NCBI GenBank assembly: GCA_038890815.1 | Contig: JAWAFC010000003.1 | Location: 575 to 64,574, forward strand | DNA from: Candidatus Micrarchaeia archaeon | GTDB taxonomy: Archaea > Micrarchaeota > Micrarchaeia > Burarchaeales > JACRGF01 | Direction of reading: 5' to 3' | DNA length: 64,000 bases | Shown: piece by piece, positions 3,085-20,900 of the stretch | Layout of the letters: every line of letters begins with the position of its first letter | How positions within the stretch are numbered: position 1 is the first letter of the stretch | Translations under genes and position numbers: made by a program | Notes under the pieces: model-generated | Told to the model about the DNA's origin: nothing | Database searches by the model: none | What the model saw: the letters and a program-made list of their open reading frames with translations, nothing else

Positions 3085-3131
3085 CCCACTCCTTCCTCGG
3101 TTTTAACAACCGCGGTCCCCACAGAGTGCCC

Positions 3132-3851: not shown

Positions 3852-3895
<44 letters not shown>

Positions 3896-4078
3896 CCTTG
3901 CGGCCGTACTCCCCAGGTGGCAGACTTAACACTTACGCTACGGCACTGCACCGGCTCTAAGCCGGTGCAACACCTCAGTCTGCATCATTTACTGCTAGGG
4001 CTACTCGGGTATCTAATCCGATTCGTTCTCCTAGCCTTCGTCCCTCACTGTCGGACGCGTTTTGGTCGAGCGCCTTTT

Positions 4079-4128
4079 GTGGAACCTTTTTTCGTCAACG
4101 TTTTTTCGTATCGACGAAAAAAGGTTGC
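4079..4128 (-). other. AT-rich ~50-nt palindromic hairpin insertion in 16S between CCAGTGGCG and AAGGCG (E. coli ~720; h22/h23 region); possible mini-intron or expansion segment
   Basis: The 16S-sense sequence CAACCTTTTTTCGTCGATACGAAAAAACGTTGACGAAAAAAGGTTCCACA has 14-bp inverted repeats (AACCTTTTTTCGTC / GACGAAAAAAGGTT). It also has a 3-nt bulge (CGC) four bp from the helix base. The equivalent archaeal 16S region normally has no insertion. Confidence 0.5.
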
Positions 4129-5107
4129 GCCACTGGTGGTCCTCACAGGATTAACGGATTTTACCCCTACCCCGTGAGTACCCTCGACCTCCCCCGCTCC
4201 CAAGCCTGCCAGTATTCCCTGCGCGCGCTGAGGTTAAGCCCCAGCATTTCACAGGGAACTTAACAGGCCAGCTACGGACTCTTTAAACCCAATATTCGTG
4301 GGCACCACTTGTGTTGCCGGTATTACCGCGGCGGCTGGCACCGGTCTTACCCAACACTTATTCAGCGAGTTGTTTGGACTCGCTAAAAGCCGAGCGCGTA
4401 GCCCGGCACTCCGAGTTCCCTCGTCACGCTTGCGCGCATTGCGAAGGTTTCGCGCCTGCTGCATCCCGTAGGACTAGGGCCCTTGGACCGGGCTGACCAC
4501 CTGCGAAGCTGGTCATCCCGTTTGTCTCAGTGCCCTTCTCGGGGCTCCAACTCCCATTGCCCCCACCGATTATCGGCTTGGTGAGCCGTTACCTCACCAA
4601 CAACCTAATCGGCCGCAGTCTCATCCTGGGGCGGACGCGCTCCAATTCGCGCGCCTTTTGAGTCGCGGGGGAGTTCCACCTCCCGCGGCCTGCCGGGGGT
4701 TAGCCACACTTTCGCGTGGTTATCCCCGTCCCCAGGGTAGATTGACTACGTGTTACTGAGCCGTACGCCGCCCGCCCAAGTGGGCGAGCAGACTTGCATG
4801 GCTTAGTCGAACTCGGATAGCAGTGCCCTCCAGCGGGATCAACTGGAGTTTGGACTGCCGTTCTGACAGTCCGCACACGCAGGAGTACCACCGCTTAGCG
4901 GTGGAAGCACTCACGATGCTCCTCTTGCCGTCTCTCGCCATTCCTTGAAGCCCAAGTCCAACCCGAATTACCTCGGGTTGCCATCGCGAAACCGAGCCGC
5001 TCGAAGGTGTACGCTGCAGTGGAAGGCAAACTTCATCGCCGCGAACTTAGAATTCGCGCTTCATCCAGCCGGGACTGCAGCCTCTCGGTAAGCTCGATTT
5101 TTGAGCA

Positions 5108-5153: not shown

Positions 5154-8100
5154 TCAACTCTGTGGAGAGGGGGAGCTACTCTCCTGCAGTTGTTTCATTC
5201 CCTCTATTATCTCATCAATATCATCTTTAATTACACCTATGCGTCTCAATGTTATTTCCTTGTCAGACCTCGAGCTGTCTGCAATATCATTTTTTATCAC
5301 ATCGGCTGTTGAGGAAAGCATTTCGAGAGCTTTAATATGTACTTTGATTTGCTCCTTGAGATCCCCTGGAAGCTGCACATGGGCGAAATAAGCATTCCTG
5401 TAGTTAGCCAGAAGTTTATCGAGCCCTTCCTCTTTTCCGCTGACTGTTTTCATTGCCTCTACTCCCGCATCGGCTGACCCGAAACCGGCCAGCACTTTTT
5501 CTTCCAGGCTCCGCAGCTCGCCCGTTATCCGCTCCTCTGATGCGCTGTCATGCGCTGCCTTAAACAGCGCTTCCCGCTGCTCCTCTGTGGACAGCACGCC
5601 GAGTGAGAAGAGCTTTCCGCCAAGCACATAGGCGCTCGCATCGTTACTATCCATGAAATCCCGCTGGTTGGCCTCCCAGCCTCCCAATGATGAGCGTGCC
5701 AGGTTTGCCTGGTTCTGAAGCAATGCAATCTTTCCCTCGAGTTCATTCAGCTCTTCCTTCACGGCATTCAGCCTTCTCACTTTTTCCTTGTACGCAAGAT
5801 AGTCCTCGGGCAGAGAAATCTCGTATTTAAATTTATCCTCGTATTTACCGCCGTATTTCTCGATGAGCTTTCTCTCGGCCTCCTCAATTTCATGCTCGTA
5901 TTTTTGTATGAGATCCTTCAACTTGTTTATCCGACCGCTTGTTTCATCAACTTTCTCGTCCAACTCCTTCCACTCCTTGTAACTCTTTTCTATGGCCGTG
6001 CCATTCTTTTTGAAGAGAAAGTCGCCTATCTCAATCGCGGCTTGGAGATACGGCATGCCTGAGATGGCTGATGGTAATGCGCTGGCGCGCTCAAATGCAT
6101 CTTTTTTGGCTTCGAGATTTTCTTGTGCATTGACTAACTCTAAATTGGCTTTTGCCGCGGCCTCCATAGATAAGGCGAGCTCATTGAATTTCTTTATTTC
6201 AGGAGGGGGCGACTCGCCCTCGAATATTATGGTGCCGTCGGCATTGTATTGAAGTTTTATGTTATTTTTTATAGCATAGTCGACAACGTCCGCGTACGCA
6301 TTCTCGAAGGCCTCGCGCTCTTTTTTTGAAAGTATTGCCAGCTGTTTTTCATAGTTTTTCTCTGCGGCATCCAGCCTGTCGCGCGCCAGCCTGTACTCCG
6401 CCTCTGCTTTCACAAGATCCAACGCCTCACCAATACCCTTAGCGGCATTCAGCTTCTCCAAGCCGCTTTTGACGGCTTCTTTGTTGTTATTATAGTCGGA
6501 GACGAGAGCGTTTGCCTTTTCTACAACATCTTTTGGCACTTCGGCGAGCTTTATGCTACCATCTTCGAAGCTCACCTGAAAGCCGTGCTTCGCCGCGAGC
6601 TCGAACAGCTGCTCTCGCGCGCTGGACATTTTTGAATAAGCATCCTTGATATCGGCCATGAGCCGGTTAGCATCTTCCTCGGCTTCACGCGTAAGTTTGG
6701 CGTTCCAGAAGTTGTCATTGAAAGTTTCGCACAACGCGAGGACTTCGTCCTGCTCGCGTTTCATCACATTTTTTTCTTTCATGTCCTTTTCCAAAGCCTC
6801 GCGATCAATATGGCCAGCAAGGGGACCCTCTGTGATGAATTTCAGCGAAATGCCGAGTTTTTTTGCAAGCTTTTCCAGCTTTTCTTTCGCTTCATCAGCC
6901 TTTTTCTGATACTCTTTGCTTCCCGGCTGTTCCTTTATTGTGCGCTCGAGCCGAGCAAATACAATGGCCTCTTCCAGCGCCGGAATGCGTGGGTCGTCTG
7001 GATTTTCCGCTCTGAGCCTGTTGAGCTCTGCTTCCATCTTATCCAATTTCGAGGTGATAGCATCGTTCAACCCTGCCATAAAGCTGCCCGTGGCAGGAGC
7101 AATCCCGCTGTCCCTCATACCCGTGTGCATGAGCAGCTGCGCCCTGCCGAGTTTGAGGAGTACTAACGATTGGTTTATCGCGCTCAATCCGTAGGCAAGA
7201 GCGTGAAGCCACAGCGGCCCGGCCGCTTTCTCCTTCGCAAACTCAGCATACTTGGCCTCCCACGTATCAAGTGTTTTAACTATCCAGCCTGCTGCCGGGC
7301 CTACTATCGGGATTTTCCTGGCAACCTCGGCACGTGTGAGCGGGCCACGGGCACCCCTTACGAGTCTCACCCTACCTGTGATAGCACCAGCAAGGTATGC
7401 AGGATTAGTATAAAGTGCGGCATAACGCACAGCCTTGCGCGAGTACTTCGCCGTCTGCTCAACTGCCACCATCCCCCATCCAAACGGGGTGTATTTGGCG
7501 AACCAGGTGTATTTGCCCTTTTCGTCGCGCAGCATTCTGGCAAACTGTCCACGGAGCTTCCCAAACGGTTTGCCTTGATACGAGGACCATCTGCCCGACA
7601 ACATCAGCATCAGCGGACTGAATTTTTTCCCTATGGCCTCTTGCTCTTGCTGGAAAAGTTGCTCCCTTTGCTTAATTGCTACATCAAGCTGCTTCTTGAG
7701 CGTAATGACTTCTTGTGTGTTCTTTGCATTCTTTATCTTAGTTTTCAGCTCTTTTATCGTGTTATTCAATTCCCTTCCTCTCTCGCTTCTGTTCACCCTT
7801 GCGGCCGCAGCCACCGCTATGCCGGATTGGATGAGTGCTGCGATGGAGGCGGTTGATATCATCATTGCTTGAGGCCCTCTCAGCCGCACCCTCGGGGGCG
7901 ACACGCGCGCGGTGAGGTCGAGCACGCCGAATGGATTGCGCCCGCTGGCGAACATCGCGGCGACCAAAAAGCTGACGATCAGGATGAGGGGGAAGCATTG
8001 GGTGAGGGTGAAGAGCGGCGGGATGCCGCCGGTGAGGCCCGAGGAGGAGTTGCTGGGCTGGAAGAGGTTATCGCCCTTGAAGAATGCGACCACCTCAAAG

Positions 8101-8810
8101 CTCTCGCCCTGCCCGGGCAGTGCGTACGAAACGAAGGCATATCCCTTCTCATCGGTGATCTGGCTTATGGGCGTTTCGCCGGGCAGGCAGCATCCCGTGC
8201 GGCAGCTCAGCTCATCAAGCCCGCACGCTCTCTGGCCCACAAAGCCGCAGTCCTCCACGGGCACATCGACCTCGATCTCGCGTGTCTGGCAGCAGAATGC
8301 GCAGTTTTCAAAGCTTGTGCCGGGCGGGCAGCCGTTTGGATAAGCGCCCTTGAAAGCGCCGCTGGCATTACAGCAGATGGCAGTGGATGGCGGGCAGGGC
8401 GCGCTGCCCGCAGGACATGCGCCGGCTATCTTTTTTATCCAAGGAGTGGCTGAATAGGCATCCTCGCAGCAGCCGACTCCCTTGCTGCACTTGTGCGTGC
8501 CGGCGGGGCATTGAGCCTCGTCTGGGTCGGCATAGCAGCAGCCCGTGAGGTTTGCGCAGAAGCGATAGAGCGTGGGGTCGCCGCACGAGCTCGCGCACCT
8601 CTGAAAATAGATTGTCCTCTGTGGAAGGGGGATGAGCATGCGGCGTACGGCATCGAGCGCGGCCAGGCGCGCCCTCGCCTCGAGCGTGCCCTGCTCCGGG
8701 TTTGTTTTTGTGGTGAGGGTGATGACTGTGGGTGATTTGGGGGCTGGGCAACCTTCCTCCTGCGCCCACGCCACAGAAGCCAACAGGAGGGCGAGCAAGA
8801 GCGCGCGCAT
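5154..8810 (-). CDS. Large membrane-anchored protein: signal peptide, ~270-aa cysteine-rich ectodomain, TM segment(s), and a ~900-aa K/E-rich coiled-coil region
   Basis: A 1218-aa ORF. The N-terminus MRALLLALLLASVAWAQEEG is followed by ~40 Cys in CC/CxC clusters (GCCYADPDEAQCPAGTHKC, AICCNASG, NCAFCCQ, CRTGCCLPGET). The hydrophobic stretches PLFTLTQCFPLILIVSFLVAAMFA and ISTASIAALIQSGIAVAAAA follow. The remainder is heptad-rich (EKLEKLAKKLG and similar). Confidence 0.75.
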   Translation of the reverse strand: MRALLLALLLASVAWAQEEGCPAPKSPTVITLTTKTNPEQGTLEARARLAALDAVRRMLIPLPQRTIYFQRCASSCGDPTLYRFCANLTGCCYADPDEAQCPAGTHKCSKGVGCCEDAYSATPWIKKIAGACPAGSAPCPPSTAICCNASGAFKGAYPNGCPPGTSFENCAFCCQTREIEVDVPVEDCGFVGQRACGLDELSCRTGCCLPGETPISQITDEKGYAFVSYALPGQGESFEVVAFFKGDNLFQPSNSSSGLTGGIPPLFTLTQCFPLILIVSFLVAAMFASGRNPFGVLDLTARVSPPRVRLRGPQAMMISTASIAALIQSGIAVAAAARVNRSERGRELNNTIKELKTKIKNAKNTQEVITLKKQLDVAIKQREQLFQQEQEAIGKKFSPLMLMLSGRWSSYQGKPFGKLRGQFARMLRDEKGKYTWFAKYTPFGWGMVAVEQTAKYSRKAVRYAALYTNPAYLAGAITGRVRLVRGARGPLTRAEVARKIPIVGPAAGWIVKTLDTWEAKYAEFAKEKAAGPLWLHALAYGLSAINQSLVLLKLGRAQLLMHTGMRDSGIAPATGSFMAGLNDAITSKLDKMEAELNRLRAENPDDPRIPALEEAIVFARLERTIKEQPGSKEYQKKADEAKEKLEKLAKKLGISLKFITEGPLAGHIDREALEKDMKEKNVMKREQDEVLALCETFNDNFWNAKLTREAEEDANRLMADIKDAYSKMSSAREQLFELAAKHGFQVSFEDGSIKLAEVPKDVVEKANALVSDYNNNKEAVKSGLEKLNAAKGIGEALDLVKAEAEYRLARDRLDAAEKNYEKQLAILSKKEREAFENAYADVVDYAIKNNIKLQYNADGTIIFEGESPPPEIKKFNELALSMEAAAKANLELVNAQENLEAKKDAFERASALPSAISGMPYLQAAIEIGDFLFKKNGTAIEKSYKEWKELDEKVDETSGRINKLKDLIQKYEHEIEEAERKLIEKYGGKYEDKFKYEISLPEDYLAYKEKVRRLNAVKEELNELEGKIALLQNQANLARSSLGGWEANQRDFMDSNDASAYVLGGKLFSLGVLSTEEQREALFKAAHDSASEERITGELRSLEEKVLAGFGSADAGVEAMKTVSGKEEGLDKLLANYRNAYFAHVQLPGDLKEQIKVHIKALEMLSSTADVIKNDIADSSRSDKEITLRRIGVIKDDIDEIIEGMKQLQESSSPSPQS

Positions 8811-8831
8811 GATGATGAAAAAACGTCCATG

Positions 8832-8841
8832 TTTATAAATA
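8832..8841. promoter_or_regulatory. Shared, near-palindromic TATA box (TTTATAAATA) for two divergent leaderless genes (ORF-A on minus, ORF-B on plus)
   Basis: It sits 22-31 nt upstream of the minus-strand ATG (8810) and 20-29 nt upstream of the plus-strand GTG (8861). The whole intergenic region is only 50 bp. Confidence 0.5.
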
Positions 8842-8860
8842 CCTTTGAAGATGGAATGGC

Positions 8861-10078
8861 GTGCGGCGTGTGGTCTTGTTGCTTCTGCTCGCAGGCTGTA
8901 TCTCCCAGCCTCCCGCCAACATCACGCTAGCCAACGTCACCCTGCCCGCCAACATCACACAGGCGAACATCACTCCCGTGAATCTCACGCAGCCAAGCGC
9001 GGAGAACATAACGCTCCCAATCGTAACCATCTCTCCATGCAACAGAATTTCCGCCCAGCCCGAGAGGGATGCCTGCGTGGCCGAGGTCGCGCTGAGGCTG
9101 AAAGAGGCGGGGCTGTGCGCGCAGGTGGCCGCGCGCGATAGAAGGTTTGCCTGCGCGCTGTCTGTGGCGAGCGCCACGCGGAATGCCAGCGCCTGCCTTC
9201 AGCTCGGTGAGGAGGCGGGCAGGTGTGTGCTGTTCTTGGTGCCGAACATCGGAGGTGAGGGCTGTGCGCTCATCAGCGGGCCTGAGCGGGAGATGTGCGA
9301 GGGCCTGGCGGCCTCCCTGAGAGGCGCTGAGGCGTGCGTTGCGCTTGCCGGCAGGGCGAGGGAGGTGTGCGCAAGGCAGGTGGCCCAGAATACGGGTAAT
9401 ACGAGCGTGTGCGAGCTGCTGGCTGGCGCGGCGAGGGAGGGGTGTAGTGCCGGCGCGCGGAGAGCAATTGGGATTAACATTAGCTGGAGCTCCTGCGCCG
9501 ATGCCCCGCAGGCAGCAAGGGATGGATGTTATTACCAGCAGGGAGTGGCGCGCGGCGATCCGGCCCTCTGCATGAGGATATCGAATGCAGATATGAGGGA
9601 GGGCTGCCTTGTGGTGCAGGACGATGGGGCGCTGAGCGCAGCCGCGCTCAATCAATCAAATCCATCGGCATTGTACTGCAAGTACATTCGAGCGCCAGAG
9701 ATGCGGGATGCCTGTTATGAGTGGGTGGCCATCTACCTGCTCGATCAGGGCCCGTGCGCTTTTGTCTCGCACAAGGACATCAAGGATGCCTGCTTTGCCT
9801 TCTCAAAGGCAAGCGATGCCCTTGAGCGAATTGTGGCCTTTGGCAATCCGGAAGGATGCGCGGTGCTGAATTTTCTCGGGGAGAAGGATGCCTGCTACGC
9901 CCGCATCGCTGCGGCCAAAGGAGACGCAACAATATGCGAAAAAATCACAAAAGAGCCCATGAGGGTGGAGTGCGCGCTGTCCCTGCTGTCGCAGCAGAAT
10001 GCCGCGACAGTGGCCGCGATATGCGAGGGGCTGACCAATGAGGAGGTGAAGGCGAATTGCACACACGCGCTTGGCTGA
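8861..10078 (+). CDS. Secreted/lipoprotein-like glycoprotein: N-terminal NxT sequon-rich stalk followed by ~12 Cys-pair repeats
   Basis: A 405-aa ORF starting MRRVVLLLLLAGC. It carries NITLANVTLPANITQANITPVNLTQPSAENITL and then repeats of (R/K)(D/E)xC-13..25-C, for example ERDACVAEVALRLKEAGLC, PEREMCEGLAASLRGAEAC and EMRDACYEWVAIYLLDQGPC. Confidence 0.7.
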   Translation: MRRVVLLLLLAGCISQPPANITLANVTLPANITQANITPVNLTQPSAENITLPIVTISPCNRISAQPERDACVAEVALRLKEAGLCAQVAARDRRFACALSVASATRNASACLQLGEEAGRCVLFLVPNIGGEGCALISGPEREMCEGLAASLRGAEACVALAGRAREVCARQVAQNTGNTSVCELLAGAAREGCSAGARRAIGINISWSSCADAPQAARDGCYYQQGVARGDPALCMRISNADMREGCLVVQDDGALSAAALNQSNPSALYCKYIRAPEMRDACYEWVAIYLLDQGPCAFVSHKDIKDACFAFSKASDALERIVAFGNPEGCAVLNFLGEKDACYARIAAAKGDATICEKITKEPMRVECALSLLSQQNAATVAAICEGLTNEEVKANCTHALG

Positions 10079-11829
10079 TTTTGCTTGCGGTGATGGGGCT
10101 GGCCATCGCCCAGCCGACATGCAGCGATCCGGCAACTGACACAAGGTATGGAGTGTGTTTCTCGCCTGGCTCGGGCACGGAGGAGCCATTTGAGTGCCCT
10201 AATGTCACGGATAAGTGGGGGAACAAACACAACAATTCGCAGTGGCTCAAGCAGACTCCCCTCGGGGATTTCGCCCTGTCGTGCGATGACCTCAATCCAT
10301 GCACTGAGGATTTTTTCGATGAGGACAAGGGGAAATGCATGTGCAGAGCAGTGCAGGATGGCTTCTATGGGGAGTGCGCGGGGCCGGATATGAGCGCGAG
10401 CAATGCGGCCTGCACCGAAAAGCGTTGCATTGGGGGAGTTTGCAAAACAATCACCGTTAAGGGAATAACCCCCATGTGCTCGGCAAGTGCTACCTACGAT
10501 TCACCTTGCAAGATAAATGTGTGCGAGAGCGGCGTCTGCACCGGGCCGAGGATTATTGGAGTGAATTTTGATTCGCAACGGGCGTGCTGCGGCAACGGCG
10601 AGCTGGAAGGCGATGAGAAGGATTGGTGCTGTGCAGACCTGCAGGCGACCGGCACGGGCCTGCCTGAGGGAAAGGAGTGCATCGGTGGCATAATGGTCAC
10701 AAAGAGCTATCTGGAGAGGGACCTTCAGCCCTTCATCAGGGCATTTCCATCGTGGGGGCCCGTCATCGTGCTCGCCCTTCTTATAGGCTATTTCCTCGCC
10801 GCGCTGGGCTACATGGCCGCGAGCTTTTTCAGGATGCCCGAGCTCGAGGCATGGGCAAAGAACGAGCTGGCTGAGGTGAGCGCAAGCGCGTTTTTTGCGG
10901 CCAATGCGATTTTTTTCATCGGGCTGATTGATGCGGCAGCTGTTGAGCTCATTGGGAAAGATTACTTCACCGTGGCGGCGAGCTTCCTCAACCTCCTGGC
11001 GGGCGAGACAGCGGCCATCATGGCCGAGCTGACGAGGGCGCAGTTCATTCTCGGATTCGGCTCAATGCTTGGAGTGCAGTTTGGTGTGCCTATATTTATT
11101 GTGATCGGATTCCTCGTGCCGGGCATGACGGCCTATCCTCTCGTGGGGGCTCGCATCATCACCACGGCGCTCGCCACCTATGGGAATGTCGCCACAATGA
11201 GCCTGATGAGCGCGCTCGGCATGGCCGTACTGCTGGAGTTCATAAACAGGTATGCGCTGACCGTCATACTGCCCGCTGGCATTGTGTTGAGGTGCTTCAC
11301 GCTGACGAGGCGGCTGGGGGCAACGCTCATGGCCATCGCAGTGGGCCTGTACGTGTTTTACCCACTGTCGCTGGCATGGAACGGCATGATATACGGCAAT
11401 GTGGAGAGGCCCAGCACGGGCGGCGTTTCGTTCATGAGCATCATAAACAACATCGTCGATCCCACGCCATTCCTTGAGATATTCGGCGGGCCCCCATTCA
11501 GGAGGTTCTGCGTGCACTGGTATGACTGGGTATGGTGCTGGTGGTATGCCATCATATGGTGGATCATCAACATGGTCATCGCATTCATCCAGCTTACCAT
11601 AGCGCTGGCCATGCTGTATTATGTTGGGCTTGCGACCACGCCCATAGGCGGCATCGGCGTGCTTGCATACGACTATTTTGTCGGTCTCATACCATCCATG
11701 ATTAGAACGATGGCGGGGGCATTCCTCTTCCCACTCATAGATCTAATTATAGTGGTTACGGCCATACGCTCGATATCGCCCGCCATTGGCGGGGAAACGA
11801 GGATAACGGGGCTGGTGGAGTTCATATGA
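10057..11829 (+). CDS. Membrane protein, paralog 1 of a six-member family, with an extra N-terminal ~200-aa cysteine-rich (EGF-like CxC) ectodomain
   Basis: A 590-aa ORF with a signal peptide and Cys-rich region. It then carries the family motifs GYMAASFFRMPELEAWAKNELAEV and LPAGIVLRCFTLTRRLGATLMAIAVGLYVFYP, plus the C-tail GETRITGLVEFI. Confidence 0.75.
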   Translation: MHTRAWLILLAVMGLAIAQPTCSDPATDTRYGVCFSPGSGTEEPFECPNVTDKWGNKHNNSQWLKQTPLGDFALSCDDLNPCTEDFFDEDKGKCMCRAVQDGFYGECAGPDMSASNAACTEKRCIGGVCKTITVKGITPMCSASATYDSPCKINVCESGVCTGPRIIGVNFDSQRACCGNGELEGDEKDWCCADLQATGTGLPEGKECIGGIMVTKSYLERDLQPFIRAFPSWGPVIVLALLIGYFLAALGYMAASFFRMPELEAWAKNELAEVSASAFFAANAIFFIGLIDAAAVELIGKDYFTVAASFLNLLAGETAAIMAELTRAQFILGFGSMLGVQFGVPIFIVIGFLVPGMTAYPLVGARIITTALATYGNVATMSLMSALGMAVLLEFINRYALTVILPAGIVLRCFTLTRRLGATLMAIAVGLYVFYPLSLAWNGMIYGNVERPSTGGVSFMSIINNIVDPTPFLEIFGGPPFRRFCVHWYDWVWCWWYAIIWWIINMVIAFIQLTIALAMLYYVGLATTPIGGIGVLAYDYFVGLIPSMIRTMAGAFLFPLIDLIIVVTAIRSISPAIGGETRITGLVEFI

Positions 11830-12803
11830 GGGCTTGGCTCATCGTGCTTGCACTCCTCCTTGCCGGCTGCACAGCCGAGCCACTCGCCGAGCTGCCTGGA
11901 TGCATCGCCCTGAGCGTGCGTGAGGAGCCGGAGCTGTATGGGTTGGTATTCGTGGCGCTGGTGGGCGTGCTGTTTGCCATCGCCATCGGCTACATGGCAG
12001 CCCAGCTTTTCAGGAGGCCTGACTGGGAAGCCATGGTGAGAGTGGAGCTCACCCAGACACTGCTGGGTGCGAGCATGATTTTCATCGCTGTGTGGCTGAG
12101 CGCATTCTCCTGCTCGATAAGCTATGAGCTTGCCGGGGGGGATACATTTGCCAAGGCAAACGCATACCTCGCAGGACTGACTTACGGGGAAATGATTCCG
12201 GCCATCATGAGGCTGTACGACAAGGCATGGCAGGCGGAGAAGCTGACGGCCTGGATCATTGGCATTTCCTCCTGCATGAGCGGCGTGTGTTTCCAGCCCT
12301 ATGCAGGCTACAGCATGGTTAGCTACAACCTCGGAACTGTGGCCGGCCTGCTCGCTCCCATCGTCACTTCGCTCATGGTGCAGATGCTCGCCCTCCAATT
12401 CATACAGCAGTTCGCATTTGTTTATCTGCTTCCGCTCGGCCTGCTGCTCAAGGCCGTGCCCTTCACAAGGGAAGCCGGCGCATTTCTCATCGCGCTCGCC
12501 ATCGGGCTGTATGTGGTCCTCCCGCTCACCTATATTTTCAATGCGAGAGTCATGGCGGACATCGGGCCGAGCATCACTGCGGGGAGCTACTGCGCGCTGA
12601 AGGCCGGGCCGGGTGACAAGCCAGGCGGGCAGGCGCTCGACAGCACGCTGGAGGGCGTTGGTGGGTTGTGCTCCACGGTCATTGCAGTTGTCGGGAAGAT
12701 TCTTCCGCAGGCAGTTTTCCTGCCCGCCCTCAACATAGTCATAACGCTCGCCTTTACAAGGACGATGGCGAGGATATTCACGCGGGATTACATGTTGGGG
12801 TAA
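11826..12803 (+). CDS. Membrane protein, paralog 2 (FtsX/MacB-like topology; novel family)
   Basis: A 325-aa ORF with an ATGA overlap to the upstream gene. Its motifs are IGYMAAQLFRRPDWEAMVRVELTQ and LPLGLLLKAVPFTREAGAFLIALAIGLYVVLP. Confidence 0.75.
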   Translation: MRAWLIVLALLLAGCTAEPLAELPGCIALSVREEPELYGLVFVALVGVLFAIAIGYMAAQLFRRPDWEAMVRVELTQTLLGASMIFIAVWLSAFSCSISYELAGGDTFAKANAYLAGLTYGEMIPAIMRLYDKAWQAEKLTAWIIGISSCMSGVCFQPYAGYSMVSYNLGTVAGLLAPIVTSLMVQMLALQFIQQFAFVYLLPLGLLLKAVPFTREAGAFLIALAIGLYVVLPLTYIFNARVMADIGPSITAGSYCALKAGPGDKPGGQALDSTLEGVGGLCSTVIAVVGKILPQAVFLPALNIVITLAFTRTMARIFTRDYMLG

Positions 12804-12807
12804 TGGC

Positions 12808-14025
12808 ATGCGGAAGATGATACACTTTGTGCTGCTTTGGCTTCTGCTTGCCAACAGCGTGGCTGCCGAACAGCAGTGTGAGGGCACGCGCATGTGCACG
12901 CTGTTCGCCAACTGGGCGCCCATCACTGCCATGGTCATACTCATCTCTCTCTTCGTTGTGTCGCTGGCCTTCATGGTGGGCAAGGGCCTCGGCATGCGGG
13001 ACATTGAGATGTTCGCCAAGGAGGAGCTGTACCAGTGCATTGCCAGCGCACTCATCCTCGGTGTGTTCATCAGTTTTGCGGCGCTCCTTGAGAGCACCTC
13101 GCAGCAGCTGGCCGGTGACATACTGACGGCCGGCACTCAGGGCACGACATTCGGCACACCAATCACAATGCGCTGGGAGTACACGGGCGACAGGAGCATG
13201 CGCTGGAGGACGACGGGCGCGCTCACCATAGAGAGATGCGGAGCTAACGACCCATTTCCCGATAAGAAATGCCACTTTTATTTGGCCAGGGCATTTTTGG
13301 GCAGCACGTTCGAAAAGCTGTCTGGGCAGGCGAGGGAGGTCGTAAAGCTGTATGGGCTCAGCATACTGTTTGACACCACATCCGTAAGCCTGGGGCTGCT
13401 TATCTTCGGACCCGTGTTTGGATTGGGGTTTGGCGTACCCCTTTTCGGTGGCAACAGCCTCCTGTACGAAACGCTCGAAACCATCTTCTCGGTCATGGCG
13501 AAGACGATGCTGCTGCTGAAATTCCAGGAGGTATCGCTCATGTACATCGAGAGGGGAATTTTCCCAGGCCTCATGATTGCCGGCCTCGTCTTCCGCTCCA
13601 TCTGGTTCATGCGGAAGCTCGGTGGGCTGCTGCTCGCGCTCGCCATCGGGCTATACACAATATTGCCGTTCATGTACATACTCAGCTGGTATACGATGGA
13701 TGCCGCACAGGCGAGGTATGATGTGAGCGCGCTGACCACCGCGCTTCAGAATAGGCAGAGCGCAGCGCAGGCCGTGATGGAGGAGCGGGGGCGTGATGTG
13801 GGGATAGGGCTATTTTTCCACCATGAGTACAGTGTGCTATTCACACACTACAGGTCTGATGGCAGCGTTGAGTACTATGGCATGCTCGATCTGGCCGGCA
13901 GGTATGCGCTCATAGCCATGGCAACGCCCACCATCGCGCTGTTCGTGCTGCTTGGTTTCGTGAGAGAACTGTCCGGCTTCCTGGGAGGGGACATTGAGAT
14001 CGCCGGACTGACGAGGATATTGTGA
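12808..14025 (+). CDS. Membrane protein, paralog 3
   Basis: A 405-aa ORF with the motifs LAFMVGKGLGMRDIEMFAKEELYQ and FPGLMIAGLVFRSIWFMRKLGGLLLALAIGLYTILP, and the C-tail GGDIEIAGLTRIL. Confidence 0.75.
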   Translation: MRKMIHFVLLWLLLANSVAAEQQCEGTRMCTLFANWAPITAMVILISLFVVSLAFMVGKGLGMRDIEMFAKEELYQCIASALILGVFISFAALLESTSQQLAGDILTAGTQGTTFGTPITMRWEYTGDRSMRWRTTGALTIERCGANDPFPDKKCHFYLARAFLGSTFEKLSGQAREVVKLYGLSILFDTTSVSLGLLIFGPVFGLGFGVPLFGGNSLLYETLETIFSVMAKTMLLLKFQEVSLMYIERGIFPGLMIAGLVFRSIWFMRKLGGLLLALAIGLYTILPFMYILSWYTMDAAQARYDVSALTTALQNRQSAAQAVMEERGRDVGIGLFFHHEYSVLFTHYRSDGSVEYYGMLDLAGRYALIAMATPTIALFVLLGFVRELSGFLGGDIEIAGLTRIL

Positions 14026-15212
14026 TGGCAACGAGAGCTGTGCTCAGCGTGCTGTTGCTTTTGGCTATGGGAGGGGCTGCCTGGGCGCAGGCAGCATGGG
14101 CTCCTGGCTGGATGAGCGTGGCTTTCCTGGCGCTGTTGGTTTCCTATTTCATGATAGGACTGGCCTTCATGTATGCCATAGGCTTCCAGGACGCCAGGAT
14201 GGAGGCCTGGTGCAGGCACGAGTTTTACCAGAACAGCGCCACGGCTGTTTTGCTGGGCATGCTCGTGGGGGTGAGCGCGCTGCTCGACAACACGCTGTAT
14301 CCGGCGTTCTGGAGCACGTCAATACTCAATCCTGAAAGCCAGAGGGCCAGCGCGAGCGTCTGCCCCAGCTCCACGCTGTCGGTGCCTGGGTTTGGGCTCT
14401 CGGTGACGCTCAACTCGCTGCGGTACAGCCCGCCAAGGGGAGGAAGGGGATTTGGAAACATACAAAATCATGTTGTGGGATATGTGGGGTGCCTTAGAAC
14501 GGCGGTCACAAAATACCTACTCGAGCTAAATCTCGGCGGTGTGTTCTTCGGCTTCATCTCCTCGCTGATGTTCAGTTTCGAGTTTGTGGAAATCAAGTTT
14601 GGCATGCTCAACATAATGCCGGGCGTTGTGATGAAGCCGGTGACGGACATGCTCGGCTACATAAACACGCTCGTGGCCATGCTCTTCCTGCAGCTCAGGG
14701 TGCAGGAGCTTGTGCTGACTTTCGCCCGCGATTATGCATTCTCTTTCCTGCTGCCTCTCGGCGTTGCCCTCAGGGCATTCACTTTCACGCGCGGGGCGGG
14801 TGGGGCGCTCATCGCCATCGCTGTCGGATTCTACATCGTGCTGCCCATCACCTATCTCTTCCAAGAGGAGATAACTGCTGATTACTGCGCGCGCCATGAC
14901 TGCCAGCGCTCGCTGCTCGCCAGATTTGGGTATGCGGGCAATCTGTATGACATCATTGTGGGGCTCATGGCAAGCGCACAAAGCGGCGGCATTGGCAGAG
15001 GGCTCACTGTGGCAGGCTCATTTGGGCAGGGCTACTCGCTGTCCGAGCTGATGTCGCTCAATGGACCTTTCGGGCCCGTGATATTCGTAGCCGGCATATC
15101 GGGGGCCGTGCTGCCCGCGCTCGGGCTCATCACGACATTCATATTTATGAAGTCCTTCGCGAACCTCATGGGAAGTGATGTGGACTTCAGCACGCTGATA
15201 AAAATTGTTTAG
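14022..15212 (+). CDS. Membrane protein, paralog 4
   Basis: A 396-aa ORF with an ATGA overlap. Its motifs are LAFMYAIGFQDARMEAWCRHEFYQ and LPLGVALRAFTFTRGAGGALIAIAVGFYIVLP, and the C-tail is GSDVDFSTLIKIV. Confidence 0.75.
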   Translation: MMATRAVLSVLLLLAMGGAAWAQAAWAPGWMSVAFLALLVSYFMIGLAFMYAIGFQDARMEAWCRHEFYQNSATAVLLGMLVGVSALLDNTLYPAFWSTSILNPESQRASASVCPSSTLSVPGFGLSVTLNSLRYSPPRGGRGFGNIQNHVVGYVGCLRTAVTKYLLELNLGGVFFGFISSLMFSFEFVEIKFGMLNIMPGVVMKPVTDMLGYINTLVAMLFLQLRVQELVLTFARDYAFSFLLPLGVALRAFTFTRGAGGALIAIAVGFYIVLPITYLFQEEITADYCARHDCQRSLLARFGYAGNLYDIIVGLMASAQSGGIGRGLTVAGSFGQGYSLSELMSLNGPFGPVIFVAGISGAVLPALGLITTFIFMKSFANLMGSDVDFSTLIKIV

Positions 15213-15220
15213 GTGGAAAC

Positions 15221-16258
15221 GTGAGCGTGTGTGCTGACCTGGCGAACTGGCCATCCGCCTGGTACACGGTTGCGGCCATCGGCATCGTGGCATCGGGCGC
15301 CGTCATTGGGTTGGTCTACATGATTGGGGTGACGCTCGGCAATCCCGGGCTCACCGCGCGCGCAAAGAACGAGATCTACCAAGTGGTGGCAACGCTGTGC
15401 ATGCTTGCCCTTGCCGTTGGGTTTGTGGGATTCGCCTGCACGGCCGATCTCAGCGGTTTCGGAGTGAGCGGAACGATCTATTCCGCCGCCGAGGCCTACC
15501 TCTCGTGGCTCGCCAGCCGCTCCATGTACGTGCTGGAGAGAATGATGCACCTGGCAGGGACGTGGGGATTTCTGGGCAGCATCGGCATGGGGATCACGAT
15601 AAGCGGCATAGGCTTCTCTTTCAACCCTTTCTCGGGCCTTTTTGGGCTTGTCAACATACTCAACATATTCATGTCGACAGCGCTCATCCTGTCGCTCACA
15701 ACGGCCGCGCAGTATGTGGTGTTCAAGTTCGCGCTTGAGGGCTTTCTGGGCTACCTCCTGCCTGTTGGTCTGGTGTGCAGGTGCTTCCCATTCACCCGCG
15801 ACTTCGGGGGCGCGCTGATTGCGCTCAGCGTAGGCTTCTCGCTGTTCTATCCATTCCTGTTCGCAGTGGACTGGGCGCTGGTGGGGCAGCCAACCAAGAG
15901 TACAATTGGAGGAGGGGGAGGAGATTTTGACAGGTGGGCGGTGGTGGATACGCTTGTGGGGTGGTATGTCTCCTTTGTAGTCGAGACTGTTGGTATCGTT
16001 ACCTTCTTTGCCGTCGTTGGAGTTCCGCTCATAATCCCGCCCATCCCGATTGTGAGCATACTGAAAATGCTCATGGAAATCTCCATCATGTTCCTTGATT
16101 CGATGATGCAGAGCGCGCTTATGCCGATAGGCGAAATACTTGTGGGCGGGCTTTTCCTGCCCGCGCTGAACGGCATCATACTTGTGGCTGTGGTGAGAGA
16201 TCTGTCGCGCGTGCTCGGCGAGGAGGTTGACATAACGACGCTGACGAGGATGGTTTGA
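15221..16258 (+). CDS. Membrane protein, paralog 5
   Basis: A 345-aa ORF with the motifs LVYMIGVTLGNPGLTARAKNEIYQ and LPVGLVCRCFPFTRDFGGALIALSVGFSLFYP, and the C-tail GEEVDITTLTRMV. Confidence 0.75.
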   Translation: MSVCADLANWPSAWYTVAAIGIVASGAVIGLVYMIGVTLGNPGLTARAKNEIYQVVATLCMLALAVGFVGFACTADLSGFGVSGTIYSAAEAYLSWLASRSMYVLERMMHLAGTWGFLGSIGMGITISGIGFSFNPFSGLFGLVNILNIFMSTALILSLTTAAQYVVFKFALEGFLGYLLPVGLVCRCFPFTRDFGGALIALSVGFSLFYPFLFAVDWALVGQPTKSTIGGGGGDFDRWAVVDTLVGWYVSFVVETVGIVTFFAVVGVPLIIPPIPIVSILKMLMEISIMFLDSMMQSALMPIGEILVGGLFLPALNGIILVAVVRDLSRVLGEEVDITTLTRMV

Positions 16259-17304
16259 TGACGTGGGAGACGAGCGCTGCTGATGTATACAAGACTTTCG
16301 GGGGCTATGGCTGGCTGGAAGTGGCCATGCTCGCCCTGCTCACCGCATTCCTGTCTGTCGCGCTCGCCTACATGCTCGCCATAGGGTTCAACCTGCCGAA
16401 CCTGAGGAGGTGGGCGAAAGCGGAATTTTATCAGGCTGCCGCGAGCGCCATGCTGGTGGCCCTCGTGTTCACGTTTGTTGAGGGAACAGATCTCCTGACT
16501 GGGGAAAGCCTGAAGTACTCGGCCGGCATCCAGCTGCTCCAGAAAAACACCGAGCTGTTTGCTGGCGACATCGTGGCGCCCGGCCAGAGGGGAAGGGTGA
16601 GGCCATTCAATGTTGTTTATGCACACGTGACCAACATGATAAACTGCGCCAGAGAAAAATACCTCAATGCCCTTGGCGAAACACAATGGCGGGAGTGGCT
16701 GACGCAGATTGTGATCACCCTGTCGATATATAAGATCGATTTGGTGATTCCGTTCCAGCTTCTCCTCTGGCCCCTCTACACGAACATCGTTGAGAACCAT
16801 GTCCTCGCCAACAGCCTTGTGTGGACGCTCATGGCCCTCTACTTCCAGCAGTCCTTCCTGCAGTGGGTTGAGACCTCGATGCTGACTGTGTTCTTCCCGC
16901 TCGGCATCATTTTGAGAATACTGCCCATCACGAGGGGAGCCGGAGCCGTGCTCATCGCCATCTCGCTGGGGCTCTACATCGTCTACCCGCTGCTGTTCAT
17001 ACTCATCGCCACAGCAGTGACTCCACCGAGCGGCTGCGCAAGGACCGAGATAACTCTCGAGCAGCCGCCCGAGATATGCGTCAGCGACCCATCGTCTTTC
17101 GTGCAGTTCCTAAAGGCAGCCGCACAGAGCAGAGGCACGCTCTACAGCGGGCAGGAGGCAAGCATGATGGCCCAGCTCACCATGTACGCCTTTTTCTATC
17201 CCCTCGTGATGATACTCATTGTGGTCATCTTTGTCAGGACGGCCTCCTCATTCCTCGGCGCAGAGATCACTGAGGTCGGGAGGGGGCTCTTCAGGCTGAT
17301 TTGA
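16255..17304 (+). CDS. Membrane protein, paralog 6
   Basis: A 349-aa ORF with an ATGA overlap. Its motifs are LAYMLAIGFNLPNLRRWAKAEFYQ and FPLGIILRILPITRGAGAVLIAISLGLYIVYP, and the C-tail is GAEITEVGRGLFRLI. Confidence 0.75.
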   Translation: MMTWETSAADVYKTFGGYGWLEVAMLALLTAFLSVALAYMLAIGFNLPNLRRWAKAEFYQAAASAMLVALVFTFVEGTDLLTGESLKYSAGIQLLQKNTELFAGDIVAPGQRGRVRPFNVVYAHVTNMINCAREKYLNALGETQWREWLTQIVITLSIYKIDLVIPFQLLLWPLYTNIVENHVLANSLVWTLMALYFQQSFLQWVETSMLTVFFPLGIILRILPITRGAGAVLIAISLGLYIVYPLLFILIATAVTPPSGCARTEITLEQPPEICVSDPSSFVQFLKAAAQSRGTLYSGQEASMMAQLTMYAFFYPLVMILIVVIFVRTASSFLGAEITEVGRGLFRLI

Positions 17305-17951
17305 TGCGCGCGTTCATCAAAAGAAACTTTCGGGCAGCGCTGGCGGCTGCGGCGTTCACTCTCGCCATACTGCTGGCCGCGCTTGCCTTTGTTGCCACAC
17401 CTCCACCATCCCAGCCTCCCCTCCCAGCGCAGGCTGAAGAAGTCCAGCCATCGGTGTGGGAGCCATTCCTGCCGCAGAACTGTAGCCCTTTCTTTGCCCC
17501 GACGACTGCCTCGTATGTCTATGCGGTGCGGTTCTCTGCTGGGGGCACTGACATAACAGGGCAGGTAAGCCATGAGCTCATATCGAGCAATGACTCATAC
17601 ACCATGAGGGATGTGCTGACAACGCCATTCGGAAAGTCTGCAATAGTTTGGGAGCTTGCGCCTGACCTGAGCTGCCGCCGGGTGCGCGCGAGCGCGGAGA
17701 TGAGCGGCATGCAGAGGGTGGACCGAGAGCTTCCGTGCGTGCCGCCCATTCCGTTTTTTGGGGCACCCTGCAGGGAGGAGATGGTGCTGAAGGGACTTAC
17801 AAACGCCAGCACGCCTTTCGGCACGATACCGGCAAAGGTTTATCATGCTACATCATCCAATGCTACATACATTGTGGCGAACAACATCGATGTGCCTCTC
17901 AAATTCGCCATTGGCAACATGCAGGGGGAGCTGATAAGATATGAAGAGTAG
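17301..17951 (+). CDS. Small N-terminally anchored or secreted protein of the same operon
   Basis: A 216-aa ORF with an ATGA overlap upstream and an 11-nt overlap with the downstream giant gene. It has a hydrophobic N-terminus followed by a Pro-rich linker. Confidence 0.55.
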   Translation: MMRAFIKRNFRAALAAAAFTLAILLAALAFVATPPPSQPPLPAQAEEVQPSVWEPFLPQNCSPFFAPTTASYVYAVRFSAGGTDITGQVSHELISSNDSYTMRDVLTTPFGKSAIVWELAPDLSCRRVRASAEMSGMQRVDRELPCVPPIPFFGAPCREEMVLKGLTNASTPFGTIPAKVYHATSSNATYIVANNIDVPLKFAIGNMQGELIRYEE

Positions 17952-20900
17952 AGTGCTCCTGCCGCTGCTTTTGGCGGCTGTGGTGCTGTCGAGCTGCGTG
18001 CTCAAGATAACCCCCAGGGTATCGCTGCCGACCTTCTCGCCCTCGCTAGGAGTGGCCGAGGCGCCATCAACCTGCAAAGAGCCGCCTTGCTACTGCATGG
18101 TGGAGGAGCAGCGCTATCGCTACAAGACATGGAGCTGCACGGGCAGTGCGGCCTCTGTGTGCGGCGAATTTGCCGGCGCAGCGGCCTGTTTCTTCAACTC
18201 AAGCGAGGGGGACTGGTGTGAGTATGTCGGAGGGGGAAGCGGCGGGCAGGGTAATTATCTGTGCTTTCAGTGGAATGGCTGCTATGACCCGGGAGGCTAC
18301 TATGTGCATGTCAAATGCAACTGCTGGTTCCAGGATGACATCGAGGTAGATTTCCTAGGTACAAAGAAGCCGGAGGATTTCAAATGCGGCTGCTTCATCT
18401 GTCCGGGCTGCCCGAGCACAAAGCTGAAATGCTGCGATCCGGAGTGCGCCACGCTCAACCTCACCTATGCCAAGCTTGCTGACGGCAGCGATGACACGGC
18501 CAGGCCGACCGGCATACAGAGGGATGCCGCAACAAACGCCCCACTGATAACGCGCAGGAAATGTGGGGAGGTGAGGCCGAGCATTCCTGGGCTGGGGAGC
18601 GGGCCTGCCATGGAAACGGCCTTTGCGCCCGGGCCGGCTGGATGTAGGGTGAACTGCACTTACGGCGACACAGCAAACTACTATTGCTATAAGAAAACGG
18701 CCAACGAGTTCAGCATCCACAGGAACTGCAAGACAGCATGGCTCTCCACGCTGCAGGGCGGAAGGCTGCTCACTGTCATTCCGTGCGATGCGCAGGAGAT
18801 GGCGCGCATCGTGAATTCGCCAACAAAAAAGCTCGTGCTTTTCAAAATAGGGCAGGGCCAGAGCCTCCAGGACTTCGAGTTTGCTAAGCAGCAGTGCCGG
18901 CTCGTCCCGCCCGATGTGCACAGGGTCACCATGGGCAAGCTCACTTTTGAGCCGACAGAGGCGAGCGTGCCGAGCTATGTGCGCTTCTGTTTCGAGAACA
19001 AAGACATCAAGCCACACAGCGTTTGCCAGAGCCAGGCAGGAGCGTGCATGCCCAATGGCCTCGCCTTTGACATCAAGCCCGAGGCCAGCGCCTGCATTGA
19101 GAGCGATGGCCTGGAGAGGCTTGGGGAGGGCAGCCACACCTTCATGGATGGCTTTTCAAAAGAGGAGTTCGTGCTCACGATAAAAAAGGCCGAGGCAGTC
19201 TTCGCCCTGCGCGATGCCATAAGCCCGCCCTATCTCGTGGGCTTTGAGAATGTTGGCGTGCGCTTTGAAAGCTATGCTGACATCGATAGGGAGATTCGGC
19301 CCATCGGCTTCTTTGACAGCATGCCGCCATTCAGTGTGCCGGCTAGGGGCCAGACAACCATGCAATTCAGGCCAGGGGTGTGGATGCTGAACGATACGGC
19401 GACCGGCACGCTCGCCACGCTGTTCGTGCTGAGCGAGACAAGAGATGTGAGGATTGGCGATGACATGGGGCCGGAGCGCATCGCCATACTCAGCGGCAGT
19501 GAGGTTTGCTTCAACAACACGCGCGGGGAACCCGTAGAGCTCGAAATATACGAGCGCTATGTGGGCGGCTTTTCGTACATCATGAACAAGAGCGTCGTGC
19601 CCGGAGGAAAGTGCTGTTGGACTCCGGAGCCTGGCAAGTATTTCGTCAATGCCAGCGGGGTTGGGGGAAACACGACGATATTTGTGGGAGAGGAGGCAGG
19701 GGCTGTGTTTGTCAGGATAAACAATCCAGAGTACTCGCCGCCTGAGCTGCTAACAAAGGTCGGCATGCGGGTGTGCTTTGTCAATCCATCAACAAAGGAA
19801 AGGACTGTGAGCGGTGGCGGCGCGTCGCTGGCCATACCGGCAAAATCGTTTGATTGCTCGTGCGTGCGCGTGCCGTGCCTCGTTGTTGAATCTGAAGGCA
19901 CGAACACATACGAGGACAGCGTCACCAAGGCCGTGTTCAAGGTCAGCGCGACGAGGAAGGAGAACAAGTTCATGAACATCACCGCTTACGGCATTTTCCC
20001 GCAGGGCGTGCTGTTCGATGGGCCCGGCAGCGTCTGCTTTGCCAACAAGGACAATGTCGAGCATGAGGTGAAGCTTGCCGAGAAATATCTCCATGTCGGT
20101 GGTGCTGTCAGACGATTGGCGGGCACGGAGAGCGTTAGGGTGGCAGCAGGCGACATCGGCTGCATCGAGCTGCCCGATGCCAATGGCTCTTTTGTGTTCA
20201 CCACATCCGGCAGGGCCGGCGAGCTAGTTGGGGTTGCTGTGAGAAACGATGCCCCGCCGAAAGCCGATCTGGCCGATCCAGTGGCGCGCAAGGCGGCTGA
20301 GGGCGTGGCGCGCATATACTTCACGCGGGCTGGGCCATTCCCGCGCGTACAGAGGGTGGGGAGCTTTGGCGACATCGAGCTGTGGAACGCCGACAACAAG
20401 CCGCACACTGTGACTGTGAACACTCAGACGCCATGCGACCAGCCTGATGCCTCGGGGGTAACGCACAGGCTGTGCCCCACCGTGAGCCTGAAAACATGCG
20501 ATGGGGGCGGGTGTGGGGGAGTCATCTGGCAGAGCAGGATGAAGTTCAAGCCCACAGACCCTCCGGCCATCGAGATACCCCCAAAGACCTACACATTCAC
20601 GGACGCTGGGAATAAGGCGAGCGTTGAGGTCATCAGCAAGGGCTTTGAGGTCGAGCTGGAGGCCATGGGCATTCCCACGCCATCCATTGCATCGCCACAG
20701 ACGATGGGCGGGAACCTGAACCTCATAAACCTGTTCAGGAGCGGGCCCATGCCTAAGACAACGCTGATGGCGCTCAGGGGATACATCCACCAGAACATCA
20801 TACCGGTCATCACGACATCGTTCGGCGGGCCGGGGCAGAGGGTTGTTGAGGAGATAGTCAAAACAGAGAGCGTGGAGACTTTGGAGTCTACGGCCGGCAG

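Follow-up and report, generated by a model that had tools for sequence, protein, structure and literature searches.

The window analyzed here is a stretch of 64,000 nucleotides of contig JAWAFC010000003.1, and its central feature is an operon of nine genes (8861-24978) in which six consecutive genes encode paralogous membrane proteins, related, as argued below, to VirB6 and CedA of type IV secretion systems (T4SS). The source is a metagenome-assembled genome from the Micrarchaeia, and hence a DPANN archaeon of the symbiont type, rather than a member of the Thermoproteales as guessed in a first-pass annotation made from the letters alone. The coordinates and lengths given there for the six genes (590, 325, 405, 396, 345 and 349 aa) were exact and all six open reading frames (ORFs) were confirmed, while the interval then assigned to the locus, 10057-17304, proved too narrow for the coupled unit. 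The features of the operon and of the gene diverging from it are as follows:

5154..8810, minus strand: p1218, a divergent membrane protein of 1218 aa with a signal peptide, a Cys-rich ectodomain and one transmembrane (TM) helix (263-291)
8832..8839, without strand: palindromic TATA-like box TTTATAAA, read from the sequence, in the 50-bp divergent spacer 8811-8860
8861..10078, plus strand: p405, first gene of the operon, a secreted Cys-rich protein of 405 aa with 27 Cys, 11 NxS/T sites and, behind the signal peptide, a lipobox-like LLAGC
10057..11829, plus strand: paralog 1, 590 aa, with a signal peptide, a Cys-rich N-terminal ectodomain of about 200 aa and a five-TM core (residues 229-590)
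11826..12803, plus strand: paralog 2, 325 aa, with a lipobox-like LLAGC signal and without the C-terminal tail motif
12808..14025, plus strand: paralog 3, 405 aa, VirB6/CedA-like
14022..15212, plus strand: paralog 4, 396 aa (NCBI MEM4389376.1, locus tag QXG98_01820)
15221..16258, plus strand: paralog 5, 345 aa, without a signal peptide
16255..17304, plus strand: paralog 6, 349 aa, without a signal peptide
17301..17951, plus strand: p216 (locus tag QXG98_01835), a bitopic protein of 216 aa with an N-terminal TM helix and an ectodomain of about 180 aa carrying three conserved Cys
17941..24978, plus strand: p2345, last gene of the operon, a giant secreted protein of 2345 aa with a signal peptide, 100 Cys and 20 NxS/T sites, without a membrane anchor

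Junctions between paralogs consist of a 4-nt ATGA overlap, of TGATG/GTGA-type overlaps or of gaps of 4 and 8 nt, in agreement with the tight coupling described in the first-pass annotation, and the overlaps continue into the flanking genes (22 nt between p405 and paralog 1, 4 nt between paralog 6 and p216, and 11 nt between p216 and p2345). This overlap of stop and start codons implies joint, roughly equimolar synthesis of the products. Pfam and NCBIfam scans detected no domain in p1218 or p2345 and no match for p405, and a database search with p216 returned the protein itself as sole match; paralog 4 and p216 are annotated in NCBI as hypothetical protein. The ectodomain of p1218 contains 24 Cys within its first ~260 aa, and its TM helix is followed by a K/E-rich coiled-coil region of ~870 aa that is almost free of Cys (one residue) and is probably cytoplasmic. 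The centre of TTTATAAA lies 25-26 nt from each of the two start codons (8810 on the minus strand and 8861 on the plus strand), and the matching spacers at related loci are short and AT-rich. The box may thus be a putative bidirectional archaeal promoter, in which a shared TATA box would give leaderless transcripts both ways, and p1218 appears to be co-regulated with the array operon. Lipobox-like motifs (LLAGC or AxGC) were also observed after the signal peptides of p405, of paralog 2 and of giant proteins encoded downstream of related arrays (L072, L053, L043, L088 and L116), which hints at lipid anchoring of Micrarchaeota surface proteins.

All 15 pairwise blastp comparisons among the six paralogs were significant (E 1.7e-5 to 1.5e-20, 22-42% identity), and each paralog scored 242-283 bits against the hidden Markov model (HMM) of the family. 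In a six-way alignment, where identity to paralog 1 was 23-30%, the motifs listed in the first-pass annotation fell into register, as expected for the single family it had proposed. The first TM helix ends in ..YM.A and is followed by P.LEAWAK.E.YQ, and in the block LP.G..LR.F.FTR..G..LIA.A.GLY...P the residues G, R, R, G and P are either invariant or conserved at more than 90% across 68-130 homologues. These motifs are common to the paralogs, whereas the C-terminal tail motif, earlier thought to be shared by all six, is well kept in paralogs 3 and 5 only; paralogs 1, 4 and 6 have degenerate forms of it, and paralog 2 lacks it. The topology of the family was deduced from Kyte-Doolittle hydropathy and from the distribution of charged residues (K/R and D/E) in 68 homologues, and indicates a core of five TM helices with the N-terminus outside and the C-terminus inside, arranged as follows (mean lengths over the same 68 homologues):

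N-terminal stretch: variable length, with a signal-peptide-like hydrophobic segment in paralogs 1-4
TM1: 27 aa
Loop 1: 17 aa
TM2: 21 aa
Ectodomain between TM2 and TM3: 74 aa, acidic
Long helix running into TM3, after the ectodomain
Turn between TM3 and TM4 (FTRxxG): 9 aa, with 2.4 K/R vs. 0.24 D/E
TM4: 23 aa
Ecto-loop 2, between TM4 and TM5: 81 aa, acidic
TM5: 30 aa
C-terminal tail: 15.5 aa

This plan differs from the four-TM architecture proposed in the first-pass annotation, which had missed the helix after AK.E.YQ. As a strongly hydrophobic helix directly follows that motif (Kyte-Doolittle values of 2.25-2.44 in paralogs 3 and 5), AK.E.YQ would form the short loop between TM1 and TM2 rather than the start of the ectodomain, which lies between TM2 and TM3; likewise, the excess of K/R over D/E within nine residues argues for a cytoplasmic TM3-TM4 turn. 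The ectodomains and ecto-loop 2 differ greatly in length among members, and long members carry either insertions in ecto-loop 2 (350 to >1100 aa) or an extended N-terminus, as paralog 1 does with its Cys-rich domain. Natural fusions of two family cores were sought and none was found.

A word-indexed search returned few relatives of the family, while an exhaustive profile search recovered 3113 cluster representatives at E<=1e-3, and 2580 at E<=1e-10. The genomic distribution was surveyed with a degenerate DNA motif derived from the invariant block, which matches four of the six paralogs of the window and no shuffled control. It was present at no fewer than 118 loci among 185,579 GTDB species genomes and had no match in IMG/VR viral contigs. 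Nearly all of these at least 118 loci are labelled Micrarchaeota, Micrarchaeia, Micrarchaeales or with named genera (Fermentimicrarchaeum, Burarchaeum and '(I)ainarchaeum'), the rest being designated 'archaeon' or 'uncultured archaeon'. An HMM search of the listed motif loci yielded at least 368 family members.

The array counts, the positional orthology and the neighbour clustering described from here on were obtained among the matches listed, that is, in 8-kb blocks around the motif loci. No block held more than six members, and runs uncut by a block edge were of size 1 (32 cases) or size 6 (2 cases) only; moreover, each of the six arrays that could be resolved by joining adjacent blocks had exactly six members. 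The window paralog at a given position finds its best match at the same position of other arrays (e.g., L002, L037, L092, L042 and L084), and this holds for more distant arrays of a second type, here called type B (L017, L053 and L061), as well as for the ATPase-linked arrays L083/L034 described below. Over 21 six-member arrays, 69% of the best inter-array matches fell on the diagonal vs. 17% expected by chance, the diagonal being strongest at position 3. Since the best matches are position-specific across arrays, the paralogs must be old and distinct and their order has been kept; the low identity shared among them (22-42%) likewise indicates that the duplications are old. Fixed order, distinctness and overlapping stop and start codons are together the signature of the subunits of one hetero-oligomer, and the fixed number and order fit a six-subunit complex of constant composition. 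In the type-B arrays (L017, L053, L074, L077, L088, L111 and others) position 3 of the oriented array is occupied by a member of 670-760 aa (the fourth gene in plus-strand coordinates for minus-strand loci) with an insertion of ~350-400 aa in ecto-loop 2, and a giant Cys-rich lipoprotein of a family designated c4 is encoded directly downstream, without a p216-like gene between them.

Neighbour clustering showed that in over 30 Micrarchaeota genomes (e.g., L115, L121, L022, L018 and L050) single-copy members of the family (~345 aa) belong to a conserved operon, with the order c3 pilin, family member, c1, c2 ATPase, c5 or c6, and sometimes c8. The small c3 proteins combine a signal peptide with a helix-loop-helix hairpin and match the Pfam families T4SS_pilin (18 of 27 sequences, best E 3.3e-7) and TrbC/VirB2 (14 of 27, 4.2e-6). 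The product of c1 has a TM helix and a coiled coil, while c2 is a VirB4/HerA-family ATPase according to its matches to CedD (1.3e-17), VirB4-like CD1110 (5e-15), TraC (6.5e-13) and CedB (3.8e-12), and to DUF87, AAA_10 and TrwB in Pfam. The c5 and c6 proteins (about 230 aa) have no recognised domain, and c8, often present, is a second ATPase of the c2 kind of about 745 aa. Besides the pilin, the family member is the sole large polytopic membrane protein of this operon, and, because it is encoded directly after the pilin gene and near that of the VirB4-like ATPase, it fills the slot of VirB6, CedA or TedA; the tedC-tedA order in Thermoproteales is also that of a pilin gene followed by the gene of a polytopic protein (PMC9905601).

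Six-member arrays occur inside complete pilin-ATPase operons as well, in three genomes:

L083+L034: CP058998.1, 32001-48000, Fermentimicrarchaeum limneticum
L031+L025: JAVZHX010000002.1
L008+L073: JAQTMQ010000003.1

There, two or three pilin genes precede the six members, and these are followed by two c1 genes and by the gene of a VirB4/CedB-like ATPase of 512-1047 aa, after which comes an ATPase-related ORF of 99 aa; c6 is present in two of the three. The arrays of these operons are positional orthologues of the window paralogs. A VirB2-type pilin and a VirB4-family ATPase belong to the neighbourhood of the family, and are missing from that of its window copy.

Sequence and structure comparisons pointed to the same kind of protein. 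In an NCBIfam scan of 130 members, CedA (NF041796) was the sole model that matched more than one of them (three members, best E 1.9e-6), and one further member matched CedE, a paralog of CedA that has five TM helices (PMC11868833). Paralog 4 aligned weakly with CedA along residues 186-286 (model positions 92-193, E 5.9e-4), and every one of these scores falls well short of the curated cutoff. AlphaFold2 models of paralog 4 (predicted local distance difference test, pLDDT, 82.3; predicted template modelling score, pTM, 0.78) and of the more compact paralog 6 (84.7 and 0.79, respectively) have the bundle of long, mostly hydrophobic alpha-helices seen in TrwI/VirB6 (7O3V). This protein was the closest solved structure in a fold search with the predicted structures, ranking first of 48,164 chains in a modest match obtained with one of the two models. 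The topology obtained from hydropathy and charge (N-terminus on the extracytoplasmic side, at least five TM segments, a large loop on that same side, C-terminus in the cytoplasm) is also the plan described for the VirB6 of A. tumefaciens, whose N-terminus and large loop are periplasmic, whose C-terminus is cytoplasmic and which potentially has five TM segments (PMC6120205); in the solved structure VirB6 has seven long helices, five of them hydrophobic, and forms a pentameric base under VirB5 and the pilus (PMC9259494). A profile comparison of the c3 pilin hairpin with the TM1-loop-TM2 hairpin of the family aligned the expected region, weakly (P 0.0014 and 0.012), which is suggestive of a VirB2-pilin-like N-terminal hairpin, and the N-terminus of CedA is reported to be related to CedA1 (PMC9905601).

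On the basis of fold, weak sequence similarity to CedA and operon context, the family is identified as a VirB6/TrwI/CedA-like polytopic protein of the T4SS channel or stalk base. A chance resemblance to VirB6 is unlikely, as these three kinds of evidence converge on one protein. The statement in the first-pass annotation that the family was not recognised holds insofar as no curated model covers it and database copies are named 'hypothetical protein', whereas the fold is not one of its own, VirB6/TrwI being the closest structure and relatives lying in VirB2-VirB4 operons; its general idea of a component of surface machinery holds up.

The arrays that lack a pilin and an ATPase gene have conserved partners instead. 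Homologues of p1218 diverge from the first array gene at 11 or more loci (L036, L001, L029, L114, L005, L103, L015, L009, L101, L047 and L038), p216 equivalents (~245 aa) were found downstream of the arrays at L113, L028, L084 and L030, and p2345 homologues at L113 and L030. In the closest syntenic relatives (CAZWEI010000001.1 and JAVZPM010000001.1) the gene order is that of the window, and p405 is not kept in the closest syntenic locus. The type-B arrays have the unrelated giant Cys-rich lipoprotein family c4 directly downstream at about 15 loci. The recurrent companions of ATPase-less arrays are therefore p1218-like, p216-like and giant Cys-rich proteins, the latter secreted or lipobox-bearing. 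Of the components of a Ced or Ted system (pilin CedA1/TedC, channel CedA/TedA and ATPase CedB/TedB), only the channel-type one is present in the window operon. Three genes of a DNA-repair set lie 0.7-11 kb downstream of it:

25206-28046 (about 25.7-28.0 kb), plus strand: Rad50, with a listed ORF start GTG at 25206
31527-33029, minus strand: HerA, with a weak match to the HAS-barrel (PF09378, E 0.004, below the Pfam cutoff)
35376-36413, minus strand: NurA, separated from HerA by two small ORFs (~2.3 kb)

The start of the Rad50 ORF is probably set ~500 nt too far upstream, since the Pfam domain begins at residue 184, and no Mre11 was noticed beside these three genes. The ATPase at 31527-33029 shares 25% identity with the T4SS-operon ATPase and was considered as a dedicated partner of the array; this was rejected, as the protein is HerA and lies near NurA and Rad50. 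The nearby ATPases being Rad50 and HerA, the earlier statement that the locus encodes no ABC ATPase is correct, and no other transport ATPase is present in cis.

Taken together, these results lead us to favour, as a probable though far from settled reading, six ancient, non-redundant VirB6-like paralogs that form one hetero-oligomer and that serve here as a T4SS-derived platform for a giant Cys-rich surface structure. A T4SS-derived platform is proposed because the module has no pilin or ATPase in cis and is hard-wired to p216 and p2345. Several observations weigh against this reading. The CedA score of paralog 4 is 19.5 bits vs. a curated cutoff of 330, below what membership by sequence profile demands, and three single-copy members scanned singly gave no CedA match. 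The Pfam profile TrbL/VirB6 (PF04610) gave no match, whether the six paralogs were scanned (E<=1) or sets of 68 and 130 relatives (E<=0.01-0.05); more generally, no Pfam or NCBIfam family was above threshold in any of these three sets, and a PDB sequence search with family profiles returned no match. The 64-kb window is devoid of a pilin, c1 or VirB4-type gene, and of c5 and c6. The solved VirB6 forms a homopentamer rather than a hexamer (PMC9259494), and co-assembly, the ring geometry, any connection with the giant proteins other than synteny and the use of an ATPase in trans are points that we infer. As regards the sub-threshold similarity, homology of TedA with CedA or VirB6 is itself detectable by profile-profile methods only (PMC9905601).

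The modest fold match with one of two models, the sub-threshold sequence matches and the weak pilin-hairpin comparison could also mean that the six proteins are unrelated, lineage-specific helical membrane proteins, that their likeness to VirB6 and CedA is an artefact of helical bundles and TM composition, and that the operon link reflects another envelope function. We regard this as very unlikely, given that three independent kinds of evidence indicate the same protein of the same machine, that a family member occupies the VirB6/CedA/TedA slot directly downstream of a pilin gene and that VirB6 came first among all chains of the fold search. The permease assignment of the first-pass annotation, in which the six proteins would be four-TM MacB/FtsX/LolC (type VII ABC) permeases performing mechanotransmission with a distal ABC ATPase, is hardly credible. 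It is supported by the size of the extracytoplasmic domains and by the basic turn conserved between two TM helices, and by nothing else. Proteins of the MacB/FtsX plan have four TM helices, the N-terminus inside and a large domain between TM1 and TM2, whereas the present family has five, is N-out and has its ectodomain between TM2 and TM3. FtsX (PF02687) and MacB_PCD (PF12704) were unmatched at the thresholds given for PF04610, no FtsX, MacB or LolC structure appeared in any fold search, and the search for a partner ABC ATPase found none in the operon, while the family-linked ATPases of other genomes are of the VirB4/HerA type, not the ABC type.

Other explanations accept the VirB6-like identity and differ in what the array does. 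It could be the channel of a working Ced/Ted-like system for DNA or protein transfer, supplied with pilins and a VirB4-like ATPase from another locus, the giant proteins being mere adhesins or neighbours. The positional orthologues inside complete pilin-ATPase operons of three genomes are in line with this, as is the finding that Sulfolobales require both CedA and CedE to import and export DNA (PMC11868833). HerA and Rad50 are encoded in Ted loci too (PMC9905601), and are found here near the array together with NurA; these three, however, constitute a standard archaeal repair set and their proximity may be coincidence. The explanation is made unlikely by the ATPase-less arrays, whose own conserved and translationally coupled partners (p1218-like, p216-like and giants) speak for a specialised function of their own and not for an operon that was split. 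It is more improbable still that the paralogs are not co-assembled and represent either redundant duplicates or alternative subunits that serve to vary host range or antigens, a role proposed for the several copies of VirB6 and VirB2 in Rickettsiales. Variation in the length of the ectodomain and ecto-loop 2, with insertions of 350 to >1100 aa, would suit such a role, and Anaplasma has four tandem virB6 and 8-15 virB2 genes with strain-specific variation (PMC3556328). Against this, the number is fixed at six, order and position-specific orthology are conserved across distant Micrarchaeota, the identities of 22-42% make the duplications old, and the overlapping codons imply synthesis of all six together. 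Fixed number, order, age and coupling fit an obligate hetero-oligomer better than a variable repertoire.

In the favoured reading of a T4SS-derived platform, the six products would co-assemble, aided by translational coupling, into one hetero-oligomer of the cytoplasmic membrane. In its simplest form this would be a ring with pseudo-six-fold symmetry, and could fit a hexameric ATPase of the VirB4 type. The variable ectodomains would build an asymmetric extracellular stalk, and the window copy would export, anchor or carry the giant Cys-rich proteins, as VirB6 carries VirB5 and the pilus, with p1218 possibly linking the complex to the cytoplasm. If energy is needed, a VirB4-like ATPase with its gene elsewhere in the genome might supply it in trans; alternatively, the complex could be passive. 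Such a platform would probably serve the contact of this symbiotic archaeon with its host cell.

With bacterial VirB6/TrwI/TrbL proteins (R388 stalk base, 7O3V) the family shares an all-helical, polytopic build with long helices, the N-out and C-in orientation with about five TM segments and a large extracytoplasmic loop, and, in relatives of the window proteins, an operon with a VirB2-type pilin and a VirB4-type ATPase. It departs from them in having six distinct paralogs in fixed order where the solved VirB6 is a homopentamer, and in lacking a match to the Pfam TrbL/VirB6 profile. In contrast to bacterial T4SS, the window locus lacks genes for VirB2, VirB4, VirB5 and VirB8 and is tied to those of giant Cys-rich proteins; moreover, its archaeal host cell is enclosed by a single membrane, or by a membrane together with an S-layer. 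Among archaeal systems, the nearest are CedA/CedE of Sulfolobales and TedA of Thermoproteales: CedA is the only curated family with recurrent matches, accompanied by the one match to CedE, the single-copy operons of Micrarchaeota share the tedC-tedA order with a VirB4/HerA-like ATPase nearby, and the N-terminal hairpin resembles the pilin, as for CedA and CedA1, in the weak profile match reported above. Unlike CedA (about 260 aa), the window members are larger (325-590 aa), have two variable ectodomains and score far under the equivalog cutoff; Ced and Ted systems have one or two copies rather than six, and Ced is a DNA-damage-induced DNA importer.

The T4SS of Rickettsiales (rvh) offers a parallel in its tandem VirB6 genes (four in Anaplasma phagocytophilum), multiplied pilin genes, VirB6 proteins with extended surface-exposed domains and host-dependent organism (PMC3556328). 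It differs in being bacterial and diderm, with an independent duplication and the rest of the T4SS retained, in its four or five copies adjoining virB3/virB4, and in that the extensions of Anaplasma are C-terminal repeat regions. The SPEARE-type giants of Nanohaloarchaea, likewise from DPANN, couple T4SS-derived parts to giant extracellular proteins with a proposed role in host interaction (PMC10266531); there, the giant itself carries a VirB4/TraG-like ATPase domain and Ig-like repeats, and no VirB6-like array is described, whereas the window giants are Cys-rich, separate polypeptides without recognisable domains. With MacB/FtsX/LolC, the resemblance is limited to membrane proteins that have sizeable extracytoplasmic domains and no substrate pathway obvious in the sequence, against differences in TM number, orientation, ectodomain position, fold, sequence family and type of partner ATPase.

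Elsewhere in the window, positions 1-4849 contain genes for 23S rRNA and for 16S rRNA, the latter interrupted. The 16S rRNA match (2714-4849, minus strand) spans 2136 nt for a model of 1478 nt, so that an insertion or intron of ~650 nt is deduced, and this holds an ORF of 179 aa (3132-3671, minus strand) with no Pfam match. An ORF of 204 aa (28995-29609, plus strand), with no significant family assignment, has an internal direct duplication of ~70 aa in which WKRLTIEEKINVIGKVNLPDEKMYELWQLLTPEEK occurs twice.

The kind of protein encoded by the array is known (VirB6/CedA); what is new is the obligate six-paralog layout and its ATPase-less coupling to giant Cys-rich proteins. In the literature searched, neither a prior description of six-paralog arrays nor a link between Micrarchaeota and T4SS was found, and both the minimal and the array-type T4SS-like operons of Micrarchaeota appear to be undescribed. 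The results give an identity, that of VirB6/CedA-like T4SS channel proteins, to 3113 cluster representatives so far named 'hypothetical', and would provide a natural case of a homo-oligomeric secretion-channel protein turned hetero-oligomer, in parallel with the tandem VirB6 of Rickettsiales. DPANN archaea, including Micrarchaeota, are host-dependent, and the molecular machinery of their contact sites is essentially unknown; the arrays yield candidates that can be tested in cultured Micrarchaeota strains. A wider proposal, which we put forward tentatively and as a doubtful possibility, is that of a phylum-wide T4SS-derived organelle built on an obligate VirB6-like heterohexamer and repurposed here, in a form lacking ATPase and pilin, for the assembly and anchoring of giant Cys-rich extracellular proteins, with a cytoplasmic coiled-coil link, as a device for attachment or exchange between symbiont and host. 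If this were true, the organelle might account for the uncharacterised envelope structures that electron cryotomography has revealed in cultured Micrarchaeota.

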